From the NCBI RefSeq assembly GCF_022846255.1, contig NZ_AP025682.1: DNA of 64,000 nt; one strand, written 5' to 3'. The notes below the pieces were generated by a model. It was not told the origin of the DNA. It saw only the letters and a list, made by a program, of their open reading frames with translations, and did no database searches. Position numbers and translations under genes: made by a program. Shown here piece after piece: positions 598 to 58,360 of this stretch; position 1 is the first letter of the stretch, and each line of letters begins with the position of its first letter. The DNA is from Escherichia coli. Its GTDB lineage: Bacteria; Pseudomonadota; Gammaproteobacteria; Enterobacterales; Enterobacteriaceae.

Positions 598-1039
598 AGT
601 AAGTACAAAACCTATTCGTTGTATGACAAATGTCACAATTCGATCATGGATAAATCGGGGCAAAAATGCAATGTTGCAGCACTATTTATCTCATATTATT
701 TGAGGGTTATAACTTCACATTATCCCCGAATTATAAGTGGTAATAATAAAGCGTTATTTAAGAAATATCGCATGTGGAGACGCCATATTAAATATTGTCA
801 ACCTAAAGAAACTCCTAAAAACCATATTGAATGACACTTAATATAATTCTTAAAAATAGCCAATTGCCGAATTGTTACCTTGCCTGCTATTCCGTTAGCT
901 GTAACACTTCCTCCTGCATTATTGGAGAGCCAATATTCAATTACCATAATGTCACCTTATATTCGGAAATTAATTTCCGCAATAACCCTTTCTCATCAAC
1001 GACTGTATGCAGAGAGGGTTTGAAAAATTAAACTAAATC

Positions 1040-1078
1040 AGTGTGTTGGTAGCTAAAAAGCCAGGGGCGGTAGCGTGT
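1040..1078 (+). promoter_or_regulatory. JUMPstart element with ops site (GGCGGTAGCGTG at 1066..1077) in the cps leader
   Basis: Exact ops 12-mer inside a 39-bp block nearly identical to the block upstream of rfbB at 25204..25243; about 180 bp upstream of the wza start. Confidence 0.8.
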
Positions 1079-2846: not shown

Positions 2847-5009
2847 ATGACAGAAAAAGTAAAACAACATGCCGCTCCGGTAACGGGCAGTGATGAAATC
2901 GATATTGGTCGCCTGGTCGGCACCGTCATTGAAGCGCGCTGGTGGGTGATTGGCATCACCGCTGTATTTGCCCTCTGTTCCGTGGTTTACACTTTCTTCG
3001 CCACGCCGATTTATAGTGCCGACGCACTGGTACAAATCGAGCAAAACAGTGGCAATTCGTTAGTGCAGGACATTGGTTCGGCATTAGCCAACAAACCGCC
3101 AGCATCGGACGCCGAGATCCAGTTGATTCGTTCGCGTCTGGTGCTTGGTAAAACGGTGGACGATCTCGACCTCGATATTGCGGTGAGCAAAAACACGTTC
3201 CCGATTTTCGGTGCGGGCTGGGATCGCCTGATGGGACGTCAGAACGAGACGGTGAAAGTGACCACCTTTAACCGCCCGAAAGAGATGGCGGATCGGGTGT
3301 TTACGCTTAATGTGCTTGATGACAAAAACTACACCCTGAGCAGTGATGGCGGCTTTAGCGCCCGTGGGCAAGCGGGCCAGATGCTGAAAAAAGAAGGCGT
3401 CACGCTGATGGTTGAAGCTATTCACGCCAGCCCGGGGAGTGAGTTTACCGTCACCAAATACTCCACGCTGGGGATGATCAACCAACTGCAAAACAGCCTG
3501 ACGGTAACGGAGAACGGCAAAGACGCAGGCGTACTGAGCTTGACTTATACCGGTGAAGATCGCGAACAGATCCGCGACATTCTTAACAGCATCGCCCGTA
3601 ACTATCAGGAGCAAAATATTGAGCGCAAATCGGCGGAAGCGTCGAAAAGCCTCGCCTTCCTCGCGCAACAGTTGCCGGAAGTACGTAGCCGCCTTGATGT
3701 TGCCGAAAACAAACTGAATGCCTTCCGTCAGGATAAAGATTCTGTTGATCTGCCGCTGGAAGCAAAAGCGGTGCTCGATTCGATGGTGAACATCGACGCG
3801 CAGTTGAACGAACTGACCTTTAAAGAGGCGGAAATCTCCAAGCTGTACACCAAAGTTCATCCGGCGTACCGCACGCTGCTGGAGAAACGGCAGGCGCTGG
3901 AAGACGAAAAAGCCAAACTTAATGGTCGCGTAACGGCGATGCCGAAAACCCAGCAGGAAATTGTCCGTCTGACCCGCGATGTCGAGTCTGGGCAGCAGGT
4001 CTATATGCAACTGCTGAATAAAGAGCAGGAGCTGAAAATCACCGAAGCCAGCACCGTCGGCGATGTGCGCATTGTTGACCCGGCAATCACCCAGCCAGGT
4101 GTACTGAAACCGAAGAAAGGGCTGATTATCCTTGGGGCGATTATCCTTGGCCTGATGCTCTCTATCGTGGGTGTGCTGCTGCGCTCGTTGTTTAATCGCG
4201 GTATCGAAAGCCCGCAGGTGCTGGAAGAACACGGTATCAGCGTCTATGCCAGCATCCCGCTGTCGGAGTGGCAGAAAGCGCGCGATAGCGTCAAAACCAT
4301 CAAAGGGATTAAACGCTATAAACAGAGCCAGCTACTGGCGGTGGGGAATCCAACCGATCTGGCGATTGAAGCCATCCGTAGTCTGCGTACCAGTCTGCAC
4401 TTCGCGATGATGCAGGCACAGAACAATGTGTTGATGATGACCGGGGTTAGCCCGTCAATCGGTAAAACCTTTGTCTGCGCCAACCTGGCGGCGGTGATTA
4501 GCCAGACCAATAAACGGGTGTTGTTGATCGACTGCGATATGCGCAAAGGCTACACCCACGAGCTGTTGGGCACTAATAACGTTAATGGCCTGTCGGAAAT
4601 TCTGATTGGTCAGGGCGATATTACTACCGCTGCTAAACCGACCTCTATTGCCAAATTTGATCTGATCCCGCGCGGTCAGGTTCCGCCAAATCCTTCTGAA
4701 CTGTTGATGAGCGAACGTTTTGCCGAACTGGTGAACTGGGCGAGTAAAAACTACGACCTGGTGTTGATTGATACGCCGCCGATTCTGGCAGTGACCGATG
4801 CGGCAATTGTTGGTCGTCATGTCGGAACCACGTTGATGGTGGCGCGTTATGCAGTCAACACATTGAAAGAAGTGGAAACCAGTCTGAGCCGCTTTGAGCA
4901 AAACGGTATTCCGGTGAAAGGGGTGATTCTGAACTCCATCTTCCGCCGCGCCAGCGCATATCAGGATTATGGCTATTACGAATACGAATATAAGTCGGAC
5001 GCGAAATAA
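2847..5009 (+). CDS. wzc: Tyrosine autokinase / polysaccharide co-polymerase (PCP-2a)
   Basis: Start taken at the ATG at 2847 (MTEKVKQH...) rather than the longer track ORF that overlaps wzb; Walker A SPSIGKT; Tyr-rich C-terminus YQDYGYYEYEYKSDAK. Confidence 0.93.
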   Translation: MTEKVKQHAAPVTGSDEIDIGRLVGTVIEARWWVIGITAVFALCSVVYTFFATPIYSADALVQIEQNSGNSLVQDIGSALANKPPASDAEIQLIRSRLVLGKTVDDLDLDIAVSKNTFPIFGAGWDRLMGRQNETVKVTTFNRPKEMADRVFTLNVLDDKNYTLSSDGGFSARGQAGQMLKKEGVTLMVEAIHASPGSEFTVTKYSTLGMINQLQNSLTVTENGKDAGVLSLTYTGEDREQIRDILNSIARNYQEQNIERKSAEASKSLAFLAQQLPEVRSRLDVAENKLNAFRQDKDSVDLPLEAKAVLDSMVNIDAQLNELTFKEAEISKLYTKVHPAYRTLLEKRQALEDEKAKLNGRVTAMPKTQQEIVRLTRDVESGQQVYMQLLNKEQELKITEASTVGDVRIVDPAITQPGVLKPKKGLIILGAIILGLMLSIVGVLLRSLFNRGIESPQVLEEHGISVYASIPLSEWQKARDSVKTIKGIKRYKQSQLLAVGNPTDLAIEAIRSLRTSLHFAMMQAQNNVLMMTGVSPSIGKTFVCANLAAVISQTNKRVLLIDCDMRKGYTHELLGTNNVNGLSEILIGQGDITTAAKPTSIAKFDLIPRGQVPPNPSELLMSERFAELVNWASKNYDLVLIDTPPILAVTDAAIVGRHVGTTLMVARYAVNTLKEVETSLSRFEQNGIPVKGVILNSIFRRASAYQDYGYYEYEYKSDAK

Positions 5010-5115: not shown

Positions 5116-5955
5116 ATGAAAGACAATCCGCTGATTTCAATCTATATGCCGACCTGGAACCGCCAACAACTGGCGATTCGGGCGATAAAATCGGTCCTGC
5201 GCCAGGACTACAGTAACTGGGAGATGATCATCGTGGATGATTGCTCCACCTCCTGGGAACAACTCCAACAGTACGTCACCGCCCTCAACGATCCGCGTAT
5301 CACTTACATTCACAACGACATTAACAGCGGAGCGTGCGCGGTACGTAACCAGGCGATTATGCTGGCGCAAGGGGAATACATCACCGGGATCGATGATGAT
5401 GATGAATGGACACCCAACCGCCTGAGCGTCTTCCTCGCCCATAAACAGCAACTGGTCACAAACGCCTTTTTGTACGCTAACGACTACGTTTGCCAGGGCG
5501 AAGTCTATTCCCAACCGGCAAGTTTGCCGCTGTATCCCAAATCGCCGTATTCACGCCGCCTGTTTTACAAACGCAATATCATTGGCAATCAGGTCTTTAC
5601 CTGGGCGTGGCGTTTCAAAGAGTGCTTGTTCGATACCGAACTGAAAGCGGCACAGGATTACGACATCTTCCTGCGGATGGTGGTGGAGTACGGCGAACCG
5701 TGGAAAGTAGAAGAGGCGACGCAGATCCTGCATATCAATCACGGCGAAATGCAGATCACCTCGTCACCGAAAAAATTCTCCGGATACTTCCACTTTTACC
5801 GCAAGCACAAAGACAAATTCGACCGCGCCAGCAAAAAATATCAGCTGTTTACCCTCTACCAGATCCGCAATAAACGCATGACCTGGCGCACTTTGCTGAC
5901 GCTGCTGTCGGTGCGTAACGGCAAACGTCTGGCTGATGGTATTCGGGGGCGCTAA
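5116..5955 (+). CDS. wcaA: Colanic acid glycosyltransferase (GT2)
   Basis: Start taken at the ATG at 5116 (MKDNPLISIYMPTWNRQ...); the track ORF's 5' extension covers the REP spacer; GT2 motifs IYMPTWN and DDDDE. Confidence 0.9.
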   Translation: MKDNPLISIYMPTWNRQQLAIRAIKSVLRQDYSNWEMIIVDDCSTSWEQLQQYVTALNDPRITYIHNDINSGACAVRNQAIMLAQGEYITGIDDDDEWTPNRLSVFLAHKQQLVTNAFLYANDYVCQGEVYSQPASLPLYPKSPYSRRLFYKRNIIGNQVFTWAWRFKECLFDTELKAAQDYDIFLRMVVEYGEPWKVEEATQILHINHGEMQITSSPKKFSGYFHFYRKHKDKFDRASKKYQLFTLYQIRNKRMTWRTLLTLLSVRNGKRLADGIRGR

Positions 5956-7660: not shown

Positions 7661-8855
7661 CTACCTGCTGCTGCCGCTGATCTACCTGCTGGTTAACGTT
7701 AAAATCGCCCAGCTTGGCGAAAGTTTCCCCATCACCATCGTCACTTTTTTACCTGTCTTGTTACTGCTGTTTTTAGAGCGCATCAGCGTTAAAAAATTGA
7801 TGATTGCCTTAGGGATTGGCGCGGGGCTCACGGCGTTTAACTACCTGTTTGGTCAGTCGTTGGATGCCAGTAAATATGTCACTTCAACCATGCTGTTTGT
7901 CTATATTGTGATCATTATTGGCATGGTGTGGAGTATTCGCTTTAAAACGATTTCTCCACACAACCATCGCAAGATATTACGTTTCTTTTATCTGGTGGTC
8001 GGGCTGGTGGTGGTGCTGGCGGCGGTGGAGATGGCGCAAATTATCCTCACCGGCGGTAGCAGTATTATGGAGTCGATTTCGAAATATCTGATTTACAGCA
8101 ACAGCTATGTGCTGAATTTCATTAAATTTGGCGGCAAGCGCACGACAGCACTTTATTTCGAACCGGCATTTTTCGCTCTGGCATTAATCTCAATTTGGCT
8201 CAGCATCAAACAGTTTGGTATCAAAACGCCTAAAACCGATGCTATGATTCTCGCAGGGATAATATTATCCGGATCGTTTTCAGGGGTTATGACCTTTATC
8301 CTGTTTTATTTGCTGGAGTGGGCATTTCAATATCTGAATAAAGAGGCGATTAAGAAAAAGTTACCGTTAGCATTGATTTCTCTGGCTGTATTCCTGGTTG
8401 GTGTGGTAATCGCGTTCCCTTATATTTCCACCCGTCTGGGCGATTTAGGTACAGAAGGATCGTCATCGTATTATCGTATTGTCGGTCCGCTGGTGATGGT
8501 CGGTTATTCTTTAACCCATATTGACGGTGTAGTCAGATTTGGCTCACTTTATGAATATGTCGCATCATTCGGAATATTTAACGGTGCGGATGTCGGAAAA
8601 ACCATAGACAATGGTTTGTATCTGCTGATTATTTATTTTTCCTGGTTCGCGGTGCTTTTATCACTGTGGTACATGGGGAAAGTGATAAAAATGATGATCA
8701 ACGCTTTTGGTGATAACCGCAATTTTCGCGTGCAATTATATCTTTTTACTCCGGTATCGCTGTTTTTTACCGGTTCGATATTTAGCCCGGAATATGCATT
8801 TTTAATCGTCTGTCCGTTTATTTTGCGAAAAGCGTTAAATATACACCCTAAATAA
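7635..8855 (+). CDS. wcaD: Putative colanic acid polymerase (Wzy-like polytopic membrane protein)
   Basis: Start taken at the ATG at 7635 (MSTSIRICSYLLLPLIYLL...); multiple predicted transmembrane helices; overlaps the wcaC 3' end by 26 nt. Confidence 0.85.
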   Translation: MSTSIRICSYLLLPLIYLLVNVKIAQLGESFPITIVTFLPVLLLLFLERISVKKLMIALGIGAGLTAFNYLFGQSLDASKYVTSTMLFVYIVIIIGMVWSIRFKTISPHNHRKILRFFYLVVGLVVVLAAVEMAQIILTGGSSIMESISKYLIYSNSYVLNFIKFGGKRTTALYFEPAFFALALISIWLSIKQFGIKTPKTDAMILAGIILSGSFSGVMTFILFYLLEWAFQYLNKEAIKKKLPLALISLAVFLVGVVIAFPYISTRLGDLGTEGSSSYYRIVGPLVMVGYSLTHIDGVVRFGSLYEYVASFGIFNGADVGKTIDNGLYLLIIYFSWFAVLLSLWYMGKVIKMMINAFGDNRNFRVQLYLFTPVSLFFTGSIFSPEYAFLIVCPFILRKALNIHPK

Positions 8856-15503: not shown

Positions 15504-15603
15504 CCGTTGAATAATCAACCGGATTAATTCTCCGGTAAATAACGAAAAAACAAAATTGGCCGTTTCGGTCAGGGCCAACTATTGCCTGAAAAAGGGTAAC
15601 GAC

Positions 15604-25203: not shown

Positions 25204-25243
25204 GCAGTGCTCTGGTAGCTGTAAAGCCAGGGGCGGTAGCGTG
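25204..25243 (+). promoter_or_regulatory. JUMPstart element with ops site (GGCGGTAGCGTG at 25232..25243) in the O-antigen operon leader
   Basis: 39-bp block cagtgctctggtagctgtaaagccaggggcggtagcgtg, about 75 bp upstream of rfbB; near-identical to the cps-leader copy. Confidence 0.85.
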
Positions 25244-34304: not shown

Positions 34305-35369
34305 ATGAAAAAAATTGCTATTATCGGTACTGTTGGCATACCAGCATCATATGGCGGATTTGAAACATTAGTTGAAAATTTAACAAGATACAATTCCTCG
34401 GGAGTTGAATATAATGTTTTTTGTTCATCGTTTCACTACAAATCCCACCAAAAAAAACATAATGGGGCCCGTTTAATTTATATTCCGCTTAAAGCCAATG
34501 GATGGCAGAGCATTGCGTATGACATAATTTCGTTAGCATATTCTATTTTTTTGAAGCCTGATGTGATTCTGATTTTAGGGGTTTCTGGTTGTTCATTTTT
34601 GCCTTTCTTCAAACTCTTAACACGCGCTAAGTTTATTACTAATATTGATGGCTTGGAATGGCGAAGAGATAAATGGAATTCAAAAGTGAAACGTTTCTTA
34701 AAATTTTCAGAAAAAATCGCAGTTCAATATTCGGATGTCGTTATTACGGATAATGAGGCAATTTCTGAGTACGTTTTTAACGAGTATAATAAAGATAGCC
34801 GAGTTATTGCCTATGGAGGGGATCATGCATGGTTAAATACTGAGGATGTATTTACAACAAGAAATTATAAAAGCGATTACTACCTTTCTGTATGTCGTAT
34901 CGAACCCGAAAACAATGTAGAATTAATTTTAAAAACATTTTCAAAGCTAAAATATAAAATAAAATTTATTGGAAATTGGAATGGCAGCGAGTTTGGAAAG
35001 AAACTTAGGCTGCATTATTCTAACTATCCAAATATTGAAATGATTGATCCGATTTATGATCTTCAACAATTATTTCACTTACGAAATAATTGCATAGGAT
35101 ATATACATGGTCATTCGGCTGGAGGAACAAACCCTTCTTTAGTCGAGGCAATGCATTTTAGTAAACCTATATTTGCATATGATTGTAAGTTTAATAGGTA
35201 CACTACTGAAAATGAAGCATGTTATTTTTCTAATGAATCTGACCTCGCAGAGAAAATCATAATGCATTGTGAGCTATCATTAGGTGTCTCTGGCACGAAA
35301 ATGAAAGAAATTGCTAACCAGAAATACACTTGGAGACGAATAGCAGAAATGTATGAGGATTGCTATTAA
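34305..35369 (+). CDS. Glycosyltransferase (GT1/GT4 with DUF1972-like N-terminus)
   Basis: 354 aa; N-terminal KIAIIGTVGIPASYGGFETLVENL; last gene before gnd. Confidence 0.75.
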   Translation: MKKIAIIGTVGIPASYGGFETLVENLTRYNSSGVEYNVFCSSFHYKSHQKKHNGARLIYIPLKANGWQSIAYDIISLAYSIFLKPDVILILGVSGCSFLPFFKLLTRAKFITNIDGLEWRRDKWNSKVKRFLKFSEKIAVQYSDVVITDNEAISEYVFNEYNKDSRVIAYGGDHAWLNTEDVFTTRNYKSDYYLSVCRIEPENNVELILKTFSKLKYKIKFIGNWNGSEFGKKLRLHYSNYPNIEMIDPIYDLQQLFHLRNNCIGYIHGHSAGGTNPSLVEAMHFSKPIFAYDCKFNRYTTENEACYFSNESDLAEKIIMHCELSLGVSGTKMKEIANQKYTWRRIAEMYEDCY

Positions 35370-37118: not shown

Positions 37119-38294
<1,176 letters not shown>

Positions 38295-46585: not shown

Positions 46586-46626
46586 CAACCGCGCAATAAA
46601 AAAGCCCCCGGAAGGTGATCTTCCGG
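46586..46626 (-). terminator. his attenuator (rho-independent terminator hairpin)
   Basis: Minus-strand gagaaagcccccggaagatcaccttccgggggcttttttat between hisL and hisG. Confidence 0.9.
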
Positions 46627-46694
46627 GGGCTTTCTCATGCGTTCATGCACCACTGGAAGATCTGAATGTCTTCCAGCACACATCGCCTGAAAGA

Positions 46695-46745
46695 CTAGTC
46701 AGGATGATGGTGATGATGGTGGTGTTTAAATTGAACGCGTGTCAT
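46695..46745 (-). CDS. hisL: his operon leader peptide
   Basis: Minus-strand atgacacgcgttcaatttaaacaccaccatcatcaccatcatcctgactag encodes MTRVQFKHHHHHHHPD with 7 consecutive His codons; too short for the ORF track. Confidence 0.95.
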   Translation of the reverse strand: MTRVQFKHHHHHHHPD

Positions 46746-48971: not shown

Positions 48972-49237
48972 AGAAAAATTATTATGACAAGCCTCTCATT
49001 CTCTTGTCATTTCCCCCCCATTTAGGCACAATGCGCCGCTGTCAAAAAATGACTAAAAACCGACGTTTCATCAGCGTCGGTTATTTTTTGCTTCAAACCA
49101 ATCATTCATACCAAGAGGCCGGGCTTCGTACCGGATAGATATTTACTAAAAATCGACAGTTGTTGTCGCTGAGGAATCCAAAAAAATGGGGCAATTTTTT
49201 GCTTACGCGACGGTTATCACCGTAAAGGAGAATGACC

Positions 49238-53752: not shown

Positions 53753-54919
53753 TTGAAACGCCGTCTTATTATTGCTGCTTCTTTGTTCGTTTTTAATTTA
53801 TCGTCTGGTTTTGCGGCGGAAAACATTCCTTTTTCACCTCAGCCTCCAGAGATTCATGCCGGGTCCTGGGTATTGATGGATTACACCACCGGTCAGATTC
53901 TCACCGCGGGTAATGAGCATCAACAGCGCAATCCCGCCAGCCTGACAAAGCTGATGACGGGCTATGTCGTGGATCGTGCTATCGATAGTCATCGCATTAC
54001 GCCAGACGATATTGTCACCGTGGGGCGTGATGCGTGGGCGAAAGATAATCCGGTGTTTGTCGGTTCTTCACTGATGTTTTTGAAAGAGGGCGATCGCGTA
54101 TCGGTACGTGATTTAAGCCGTGGTTTAATTGTGGATTCCGGAAATGACGCTTGTGTTGCACTGGCTGACTATATTGCCGGTGGGCAACGGCAGTTTGTTG
54201 AAATGATGAACAACTATGCCGAGAAGCTGCATCTCAAGGATACGCATTTTGAAACAGTGCATGGTCTGGATGCACCTGGCCAGCATAGCTCGGCTTATGA
54301 TTTAGCTGTGCTTTCTCGCGCTATCATCCACGGCGAGCCCGAGTTTTATCATATGTACAGTGAGAAAAGCCTCACCTGGAACGGTATCACCCAGCAAAAC
54401 CGTAACGGGTTATTGTGGGATAAAACCATGAATGTTGACGGCCTGAAAACGGGTCATACTTCTGGTGCCGGGTTTAATCTCATTGCTTCGGCTGTAGATG
54501 GGCAGCGTCGTCTCATTGCAGTGGTAATGGGGGCTGACAGCGCAAAAGGTCGTGAGGAAGAGGCAAGAAAATTACTGCGTTGGGGTCAACAAAACTTTAC
54601 TACGGTGCAAATTTTGCACCGTGGGAAAAAGGTTGGTACGGAACGCATCTGGTATGGCGATAAAGAAAATATCGCCCTGGGAACGGAACAAGAGTTCTGG
54701 ATGGTGCTACCGAAAGCCGAAATTCCACATATCAAAGCCAAATATACCCTTGATGGTAAAGAACTCACCGCGCCAATTAGCGCCCATCAGCGGGTAGGGG
54801 AAATTGAACTTTACGACCGTGATAAACAGGTGGCGCACTGGCCGCTGGTTACCCTGGAATCTGTCGGGGAAGGCAGCATGTTTTCCCGGCTGAGTGATTA
54901 TTTCCACCATAAGGCCTGA
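53753..54919 (+). CDS. dacD: D-alanyl-D-alanine carboxypeptidase (PBP6b)
   Basis: 388 aa with a TTG start; SxxK (ASLTK), SGN and KTG motifs; signal peptide. Confidence 0.9.
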   Translation: MKRRLIIAASLFVFNLSSGFAAENIPFSPQPPEIHAGSWVLMDYTTGQILTAGNEHQQRNPASLTKLMTGYVVDRAIDSHRITPDDIVTVGRDAWAKDNPVFVGSSLMFLKEGDRVSVRDLSRGLIVDSGNDACVALADYIAGGQRQFVEMMNNYAEKLHLKDTHFETVHGLDAPGQHSSAYDLAVLSRAIIHGEPEFYHMYSEKSLTWNGITQQNRNGLLWDKTMNVDGLKTGHTSGAGFNLIASAVDGQRRLIAVVMGADSAKGREEEARKLLRWGQQNFTTVQILHRGKKVGTERIWYGDKENIALGTEQEFWMVLPKAEIPHIKAKYTLDGKELTAPISAHQRVGEIELYDRDKQVAHWPLVTLESVGEGSMFSRLSDYFHHKA

Positions 54920-55003
54920 CCTTTCTTTTGCAGCAGACTGGCAGGAGTGCGAGTCTGCTCGCATAATCAACACTCATTCCTTGTGGTTTTAATATTGCAA
55001 CTA

Positions 55004-55023
55004 TACTGTATATAAAAACAGTA
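55004..55023 (+). promoter_or_regulatory. LexA (SOS) box upstream of sbmC
   Basis: tactgtatataaaaacagta matches the CTGT-N8-ACAG SOS-box consensus, 15 bp upstream of the sbmC ATG. Confidence 0.85.
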
Positions 55024-55037
55024 TTAATGGGGGCGTC

Positions 55038-55511
55038 ATGAACTACGAGATTAAGCAGGAAGATAAACGTACCGTTGCAGGTTTCCATCTCGTTGGCCCG
55101 TGGGAACAGACGGTAAAGAAAGGCTTTGAGCAGTTGATGATGTGGATAGATAGCAAAAATATTGTGCCGAAGGAGTGGGTTGCTGTCTATTACGACAATC
55201 CAGATGAAACACCCGCCGAAAAATTACGCTGCGACACCGTCGTGACGGTGCCGAATAACTTTACGCTCCCCGAAAACAGTGAGGGCGTCATTCTGACAGA
55301 AATTTCAGGTGGTCAGTATGCGGTGGCGGTGGCTCGTGTAGTCGGTGATGATTTTGCTAAACCCTGGTATCAGTTCTTTAATAGCCTCTTGCAGGACAGT
55401 GCCTATGAAATGTTACCAAAGCCCTGCTTCGAGGTTTACTTGAACAATGGCGCGGAAGATGGGTACTGGGATATCGAAATGTATGTTGCGGTGCAGCCAA
55501 AACATCACTAA
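55038..55511 (+). CDS. sbmC: DNA gyrase inhibitor (GyrI-like)
   Basis: 157 aa; [24 protein letters not shown]... Confidence 0.93.
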
Positions 55512-58010: not shown

Positions 58011-58165
58011 CAGGGGAAATGAAGCCTGTTGAGTGAGATTCACCGGTTCTGGTGCAGAAGCTGCAGATGGCGCAGGGTAAGGACATCTTCTCTTGCCTGC
58101 TTAATACAGGACAACAGTGCTGTTTCTGTGGTTAATGGCACTATACCCTGCATCACTGCATTGTC

Positions 58166-58360
58166 TTACAGCAACTGGTGAGGGCTGGCATAAGTTGCCG
58201 GTGTTTCGGTAGAGTCACGGTCATCCACCACGCGGAGTGAATAACCGTTTTCAGCGGCCTTATTAATCAGTTCAGTGATATTAACACCATCAATGTCAAC
58301 GACAATGTGCCCCATATCCAGCGCCTGTACGTTAACGCTGTCGGCTTCCAGTGTCATCAT
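58166..58360 (-). CDS. yeeW: CP4-44-type small protein YeeW
   Basis: 64 aa (MMTLEADSVNVQALDMGH...); its ATG overlaps the stop of the cbtA reading frame. Confidence 0.75.
   Translation of the reverse strand: MMTLEADSVNVQALDMGHIVVDIDGVNITELINKAAENGYSLRVVDDRDSTETPATYASPHQLL

Follow-up and report, generated by a model that had tools for sequence, protein, structure and literature searches.

What places the E. coli gene sbmC under the control of the SOS response, and how would the repressor LexA act on its promoter? The question is raised by a 20-base palindrome located at positions 55004–55023 of the 64,000-nucleotide stretch of E. coli DNA analysed here (hereafter 'the window'), in the short spacer that separates dacD from sbmC. 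The initial annotation, made from the sequence alone, had read this palindrome as a near-consensus LexA box that puts sbmC in the SOS regulon and probably overlaps its promoter.

The sbmC locus

The gene downstream of the palindrome (55038–55511, plus strand) encodes a protein of 157 amino acids and is sbmC (gyrI), the gene for a DNA gyrase inhibitor, as judged by its open reading frame and by the RefSeq annotation of identical records. Residues 1–152 of SbmC constitute a full-length GyrI-like domain (Pfam PF06445, E = 8e-33), and residues 1–157 align end to end with the DNA gyrase inhibitory protein of PDB 1JYH_A (E = 1.7e-106); 1JYH is the sole match to the protein among solved structures. 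The surrounding 1-kb region, with the gene order dacD–sbmC–yeeA, matches several complete E. coli chromosomes at 100% identity, and the K-12 counterpart of the gene is b2009. The ribosome-binding site is located at 55029–55033 (plus strand), 5–9 nt before the ATG. It reads GGGGG in this allele; K-12 has GGAGG, as do five of the six further alleles compared within E. coli and the majority of the other genera, and a GGAGG block is strongly conserved at this position in our footprint alignment of 35 upstream regions. The difference may affect translation only slightly.

Over its whole length the window is collinear with E. coli SMS-3-5, running from the colanic acid cluster through the O-antigen cluster and the his operon to the genes sbcB–dacD–sbmC–yeeA. 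While tRNA and Rfam scans gave no match at or near the sbmC box, five Rfam matches are located elsewhere in the window (1039–1077, 15550–15599, 25205–25243, 46596–46719 and 49017–49091). Two of them are JUMPstart elements, one upstream of wza in the colanic acid cluster and one between wcaM and galF; the other three are an algC RNA motif within that cluster, the His leader, and the sRNA STnc240, which is located between yeeY and yoeI/plaP. As judged by collinearity with SMS-3-5 (NC_010498.1), an IS1A element is expected beside a truncated flippase gene in the O-antigen cluster (about 34390–35087), and the region beyond tmaR (about 60900–64000) should hold degraded CP4-44-type prophage remnants, namely a transposase fragment, a DUF957 fragment, yeeW and a frameshifted cbtA.

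A near-consensus LexA operator precedes sbmC

The palindrome at 55004–55023, TACTGTATATAAAAACAGTA, reads as a LexA (SOS) operator. Its CTG and CAG triplets are spaced by exactly 10 bp, and CTGTATATAAAAACAG at 55006–55021 fits the inverted CTG pair, CTGT-N8-ACAG, within a 20-bp quasi-palindrome. Compared to the consensus TACTG(TA)5CAGTA the box matches at 18 of 20 positions, with both mismatches confined to the A/T spacer. The gap between the end of the box and the ATG at 55038 is 14 nt (55038 − 55023 = 15), and both the motif and the 15-bp distance to the start codon given in the initial annotation proved exact in sequence and coordinates. A role of the box in regulating dacD was rejected, since dacD is on the same strand and the box comes after its stop codon.

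The bare CTGT-N8-ACAG motif is not significant when used alone as a test of the site: it occurs once in the window against 0.53 expected, and at least once in 40 of 100 shuffled sequences. We therefore turned to a full matrix test; the full 20-mer, with up to three mismatches allowed, was absent from all 100 shuffles. For the LexA weight matrix we used the operators listed by Thomassen et al. 2010 (PMC3009722, Table 4) except that of sbmC, 17 in all. Scored with this leave-one-out matrix, the sbmC box reaches 27.9 bits out of a matrix maximum of 28.7, thereby equalling the best of the training operators, which span 15.8–27.9 bits, and it still scores 27.0 bits when the identical umuD site is removed from the matrix as well. 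The maxima of 200 random 64-kb sequences of the same dinucleotide content average 13.6 ± 1.8 bits, the largest being 18.9. The second-best LexA-like site in the window, inside ugd, scores 14.9 bits; as candidates for further LexA boxes, this site (37765–37784) and those at 7891–7910 and 58154–58173 were rejected, since their scores of 11.6–14.9 bits fall within the random range. The Lewis formula, applied to the sites used for the matrix, gives the sbmC box a heterology-type index of 0.58, the lowest among these 17 sites and tied with umuD.

The published evidence points the same way. K-12 sbmC is found among the UV-induced genes, in an identical 25-mer context and with umuD, which has the same 20-mer core, adjacent to it (PMC3009722, Table 4), and the gene belongs to the standard list of LexA-regulated genes (PMC6590174). 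An sbmC promoter–GFP fusion responds to UV with a biphasic profile that has been attributed to an alternative sigma factor (PMC5999292). Culyba et al. left sbmC out of their kinetic analysis, given this biphasic response and the lack of a predicted sigma-70 promoter (PMC5999292); for the same two reasons LexA is clearly not the sole control of the gene. Reviews credit Baquero et al. 1995 with the SOS and stationary-phase induction of sbmC, and Oh et al. 2001 with its control by H-NS and RpoS. In Salmonella, sbmC has one box and is induced 3.55-fold by nalidixic acid (PMC8072944); it serves as the example of group III, a group whose high-expression subpopulation is lost in the lexA(Ind-) background (PMC8072944). 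Taken together, the matrix score, the identity with the umuDC operator, the conservation among orthologues described below and the literature bear out the assignment of sbmC to the SOS regulon, and 55004–55023 is confirmed as the LexA operator of E. coli sbmC, an already known feature.

Conservation of the operator

To follow the box beyond E. coli, we scanned 69 loci encoding SbmC relatives, with one genome taken per species. Of the 69 sbmC orthologues, 63 have a box of at least 15 bits in the 250 nt preceding the start codon, with a median score of 23.1 bits; the 942 control windows of 250 nt, taken elsewhere in these loci, all stay below this threshold, with a maximum of 11.4. Among the genera represented are Escherichia, Citrobacter, Salmonella, Enterobacter, Lelliottia, Kluyvera, Leclercia, Silvania, Klebsiella and Raoultella, and in all but one of the 63 loci the box ends 14–24 nt from the ATG. 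The count of 63 includes Intestinirhabdus, with a 16.6-bit box 166 nt upstream. Two Raoultella loci fall below the 15-bit threshold, with scores of 11.1 and 13.6 bits; the distant homologues in Tolumonas and Armatimonadetes have no box upstream.

Across genera with 59–98% protein identity the arms of the sbmC box are kept and its spacer drifts. Conserved arms combined with a drifting spacer are the usual signature of a dimeric repressor site. The left arm itself varies, reading GTG in Enterobacter and related genera and ATG in the Klebsiella clade as compared to CTG, and operators with a GTG or ATG arm are predicted from their sequence to be weaker. In Escherichia sp. MOD1-EC7003 (locus L068, about 1930–2246) a deletion has removed the box (…TTGCAAACATACTGATTGGAGGCGTC), and the match to SbmC is limited to residues 1–82; sbmC is probably decaying in this lineage. 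Within E. coli we compared eight alleles, K-12 included. The 16-bp core is the same as in the window in six of the seven other alleles; in the divergent strain E69, CCAG replaces ACAG in the core. Position 20 of the box is A or G among the eight alleles.

Predicted architecture of the sbmC promoter

The footprint alignment contains four conserved blocks: the arms of the box, the GGAGG ribosome-binding site, a TTG block, and a palindrome at 54948–54963. The TTG block belongs to a -35-like hexamer, TTGTGG, at 54981–54986 (plus strand), with the TTG conserved across genera. The candidate -10 region at 55002–55009 (plus strand) offers two hexamers, TATACT (55002–55007) and TACTGT (55004–55009), separated from TTGTGG by 15 and 17 nt, respectively. 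A TAnnnT hexamer that begins 2 nt before the box is kept across genera (TATACT, TACACT, TATAGT), and together with the TTG block it would set the -10 on the left arm of the box; the distance from the TTG block to the -10-like hexamer is 17–18 nt in the other genera examined as compared to 15–16 nt in Escherichia.

We infer a transcription start at about 55014–55016, inside the box, with the TACTGT alternative giving a start at about 55016; the published class I CRP-S mechanism (PMC1635313) fits a start at 55014–55017. Since the ribosome-binding site fills the 14-nt gap between the box and the ATG, the start must be located in the box or upstream of it. The 5' boundary of the UV-induced sbmC transcript was placed at about 55012 by tiling array, with 7-nt intergenic resolution (PMC3009722). 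Searched by name and by coordinates, the supplements of the Shigella M90T, ROSE, Romero 2014 and Cappable-seq studies contain no single-nucleotide sbmC start, and the Thomassen supplements have no sbmC entry. The initial annotation had suggested that the box probably overlaps the promoter. This part of its reading receives indirect support from the gap taken up by the ribosome-binding site, the conserved hexamers, the tiling-array boundary and the published class I mechanism of the CRP-S site described below; an overlap of the box with both the -10 hexamer and the transcription start is thus the most likely arrangement.

Two further promoter-like matches were found in the spacer by comparison with the consensus. 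The pair CTGGCA-18-CATAAT at 54938–54967 matches at 9 of 12 positions, is conserved, and may represent a second promoter. On the minus strand, a sigma-70-like match, TTAATA-16-TATAGT (window 55000–55027), overlaps the LexA box and is probably a chance occurrence in A/T-rich DNA; less probably, it could mark an antisense start under SOS control, directed at the 3' end of dacD.

The CRP-S site upstream of sbmC

The conserved palindrome at 54948–54963, TGCGAGTCTGCTCGCA, corresponds to the Sxy-dependent CRP activator site (CRP-S) of sbmC, TGCGA-N6-TCGCA. It is a perfect palindrome, TGCGAG-TCTG-CTCGCA, set in a 22-bp site (54945–54966) and followed by TAAT; the core half-sites at 54948–54963 display the TGCGA motif, with C at position 6 and G at position 17. 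The palindrome is among the most conserved blocks of the dacD–sbmC spacer and is conserved across genera. Cameron and Redfield 2006 (PMC1635313) reported a 6-fold induction of sbmC by Sxy for which CRP and cAMP are absolutely required, described the promoter as working by a class I mechanism, and treated the palindrome upstream of the gene as a CRP-S-like site (PMC1635313).

The distance between the palindrome and the box is 56–57 nt in Escherichia, 58 nt in most Citrobacter and in Salmonella, and 59 nt in Enterobacter, Kluyvera and Leclercia. Class I CRP sites are centred at about -61.5, -72 and so on from the transcription start. Provided that the TAnnnT hexamer is the -10 element and that the start lies 7 nt after it, the CRP-S site would be centred at -60.5 from the predicted starts of Citrobacter and Salmonella and at -61.5 from those of Enterobacter and Kluyvera. 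In E. coli, where the TTGTGG–TATACT spacer is only 15 nt long, its centre (54955.5) would be at about -58.5 from the predicted start, or at -60.5 with the alternative TACTGT, rather than at the ideal -61.5. Within the Klebsiella/Raoultella clade one half-site of the palindrome is a canonical TGTGA, and the palindrome is located 14 nt nearer to the box, which would put it at -41.5 from a TA(C/G)A(G/T)T hexamer just before the box; by sequence, the class I geometry may have given way to class II in the clade.

The CRP-S site overlaps a stable stem-loop (54929–54963, plus strand) that follows just after the dacD stop codon (54917–54919). Its predicted RNA fold has an energy of -22.9 kcal/mol (z = -3.4), with none of 200 shuffled sequences equally stable, and in Leclercia both sides of the stem are changed (GCAGGCT...AGCCTGC). 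The stem-loop is possibly the structure of the dacD 3' end, or a terminator structure without a U-tract.

A model of sbmC control and its alternatives

Our preferred reading, in which we have high confidence, is that the box is a LexA operator of the sbmC promoter that probably occludes the -10 element and the start, with CRP-S and stationary-phase inputs acting on the same promoter. In undamaged cells a LexA dimer would hold both CTG/CAG arms of the site at 55004–55023. The operator would thereby cover both the -10 element and the start site of a weak promoter (TTGTGG at 54981–54986, followed by TATACT/TACTGT), and the bound repressor would block RNA polymerase. Upon DNA damage, activated RecA would bring about the self-cleavage of LexA, freeing the promoter; how strongly it then fires would be set by CRP–cAMP together with Sxy at the CRP-S site (54948–54963, in class I geometry), with RpoS and H-NS acting, according to the literature, as further inputs in stationary phase. 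The SbmC/GyrI product binds gyrase and guards the cell against gyrase poisons and DNA-damaging agents. The sequence, score, conservation and gene identity that enter this model were computed here; SOS induction and the dependence on Sxy and CRP are taken from the literature. As the -10 hexamer and the start are placed inside the LexA box, a position that we infer, repression by occlusion is the best-supported mechanism.

A true LexA operator could also act as a roadblock downstream of the promoter. Transcription would then begin at about 54974, from CTGGCA-18-CATAAT, and the box would cover about +31 to +50. Apart from its 9 of 12 consensus matches, this pair has in its favour that the CACATAAT block is among the most conserved spacer columns in all genera. 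The conserved block coincides, however, with the published CRP-S site and its A/T flank (PMC1635313), and its conservation is therefore explained without a promoter; once this identity had emerged, we downgraded the distal pair as the main sbmC promoter. Furthermore, a class I CRP site needs a start about 60 nt downstream of itself rather than within it, the boundary of the UV-induced transcript lies at about 55012 and not at 54974 (PMC3009722), and in the Klebsiella clade the block is 14 nt nearer to the box, which by our count would centre it at -41.5 from a -10 hexamer just upstream of the box. We regard a downstream roadblock as unlikely.

The two remaining alternatives dispute the role of the box at sbmC. 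The more radical, that the palindrome arose by chance as an A/T-rich inverted repeat, or is an ordinary promoter element, and that LexA does not use it, could appeal to the frequency of the bare motif in shuffled sequences (0.53 expected per window, 40 of 100 shuffles with at least one) and to the A/T-rich surroundings, which also contain the minus-strand promoter-like match. It can hardly be maintained given that the full-length score is far beyond the random distribution, that the arms are conserved while the spacer drifts and no control window attains 15 bits, and that the 20-mer is that of the proven umuDC operator, with SOS induction of sbmC itself published. It is very improbable, if slightly less so, that the box mainly serves an antisense or divergent RNA transcribed from the minus-strand TTAATA-16-TATAGT (55027–55000). 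LexA boxes are symmetric and may serve either strand, and this consensus match does overlap the box; yet downstream on the minus strand there is no ORF or Rfam family, only the 3' end of dacD, the distance from the box to the sbmC ATG is fixed at 14–24 nt across genera, and the transcript induced by damage is sbmC itself (PMC3009722, PMC5999292). Occlusion of the sbmC promoter by LexA is the reading that we retain.

Relation to known operators and promoters

Among the closest known systems is the umuDC operator, which has a 20-mer identical to the sbmC box, is likewise found near the start codon of the gene under its control, and is among the operators whose LexA binding was analysed in PMC5999292. 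In Culyba 2018 (PMC5999292), umuD is a late SOS promoter with a high induction threshold. The flanks and promoter are different: sbmC has the upstream CRP-S site and the reported RpoS/H-NS input in stationary phase, and gave the biphasic response to UV.

Within the gene's own family, the K-12 sbmC box (Baquero 1995; Thomassen 2010, Table 4) is the same 20-mer in the same position before the same gene. The window differs from K-12 outside the core only, with TTA instead of TCA after the box, A instead of T at 54994, and GGGGG instead of GGAGG as the ribosome-binding site. The orthologous gene of Salmonella enterica likewise has a single box near the ATG and is induced by DNA damage (PMC8072944). 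The Salmonella boxes, however, read CACTGTATATAAATACAGTG and TACTGTATATAAGTACAGTA in the two subspecies sampled, their TTG block and -10-like hexamer are 2 nt farther apart, and the published heterology index of 6.32 indicates a weaker box than that of E. coli sbmC (PMC8072944).

CRP-S promoters such as those of ppdD and yrfD (Cameron and Redfield 2006, PMC1635313) resemble that of sbmC in the TGCGA-N6-TCGCA core and in the dependence on Sxy, CRP and cAMP, established for sbmC by qPCR (PMC1635313). As a difference, sbmC is not a DNA-uptake gene and additionally has a LexA operator; with both sites present, sbmC joins SOS and Sxy/CRP signals.

Mobile elements occupy the sbmC operator in other strains

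We queried 5,426 complete E. coli genomes with the dacD–sbmC spacer. In 276 matching genomes the query coverage was below 80%, and two causes of the low coverage were identified, the insertion sequence ISKox3 and a group II intron. Judging by the junctions in the other strains, the empty targets of both elements are located in the window at 55010–55023 (plus strand): 55010–55017 for ISKox3, and between 55022 and 55023 for the intron.

ISKox3, a member of the ISL3 family, is found inside the sbmC box of 101 of the 5,426 genomes (about 2%). It is flanked by an 8-bp target duplication, ATATAAAA, that corresponds to 55010–55017 of the window; the junctions can be seen at positions 4085–4100 and 5400–5425 of locus L072 (NZ_CM136154.1). 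The insertion splits the operator and leaves the candidate -35 and -10 hexamers and the CRP-S site about 1.3 kb away from sbmC.

The group II intron, 1.91 kb in length, is inserted between positions 19 and 20 of the box, on the sbmC strand, in 7 of the 5,426 genomes. Here the box is preserved, the first G of the intron taking position 20 (junctions at 1350–1380 and 3270–3297 of locus L079, NZ_CP200274.1). In one of the seven strains the 5' flank of the intron (2071–2097 of locus L073) is a different LexA-like box, located in a prophage-like region. The intron scores 186.6 bits against the Rfam model group-II-D1D4-6 and encodes a protein of 495 amino acids, in which the Pfam search found the RVT_1 domain only and no match to an endonuclease domain. 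A candidate EBS1 is the hexamer ACUGUU at nucleotides 188–193 of the intron, which is complementary to AACAGU, the exon sequence from -6 to -1.

The intron is widespread: the exact 18-mer of its 5' end matched 88 stretches of IMG/VR DNA, and its first 190 nt together with the last exon base are matched in 4,256 PLSDB plasmids, mostly from Klebsiella. Enough flanking sequence was available for 94 copies. A LexA box of at least 17 bits ends exactly at the junction in 89 of these copies and in 65 of the 68 distinct 30-nt flanks; the three flanks that lack a box are a tandem intron–intron junction, present in three copies, and two single copies elsewhere. Restricted to complete, non-tandem, distinct sites, the count is 36 SOS boxes out of 37. 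The target logo is conserved over both arms, at -19 to -10, -7 and -5 to +1, and the homing-site pattern can be written as a 5' exon ending in ...TACTGTATAT(A/T)(A/T)A(A/T)ACAGT, followed by A(T)(T) at +1 to +3. The stretch 55004–55025 of the window equals the commonest occupied target plus ATT; here it is empty, and the operator is intact.

An ORF in the same orientation begins at most 70 nt downstream at 27 of the 37 sites; the products of the ORFs that follow the intron are UmuD-like S24 peptidases, DinI-like proteins, SbmC and the small phage family phrog_3893. That the intron is always sense to the downstream SOS gene is ruled out by the plasmid umuDC loci, which are divergent: in the three sampled, the intron points away from umuD. 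The orientation of the intron thus follows the arm that reads ACAGT, and not the gene. Our search of the full-text literature, in which few subscription journals are covered, returned no description of a group II intron specific for SOS boxes. Known group II intron targets include terminators and attC. We put forward, tentatively and with less than even confidence, that the operator is a landing pad for mobile elements, and that an enterobacterial group II intron of about 1.91 kb homes specifically into LexA boxes. Inserted in sense between positions 19 and 20 with the box intact, such an intron would be transcribed under SOS control from the leader of the host gene.

Biological implications

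The operator itself adds little that is new; a reader working from the sequence alone placed sbmC in the LexA regulon correctly. The surroundings of the operator are more informative. A single spacer of 120 bp holds the LexA operator, the CRP-S/Sxy activator site and probably a stationary-phase promoter, and since it combines these sites, the sbmC promoter reads both DNA damage and nutritional/competence signals. In strains with ISKox3, the disruption should alter the expression of sbmC, whose product modulates how well cells tolerate gyrase poisons and DNA-damaging drugs. As to the intron, if its specificity is indeed undescribed, group II introns would gain a new class of target, a transcription-factor operator. 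The use of many SOS boxes, that of sbmC included, as insertion sites by one intron family would, if new, bear on how retroelements choose safe, inducible niches in the genome.
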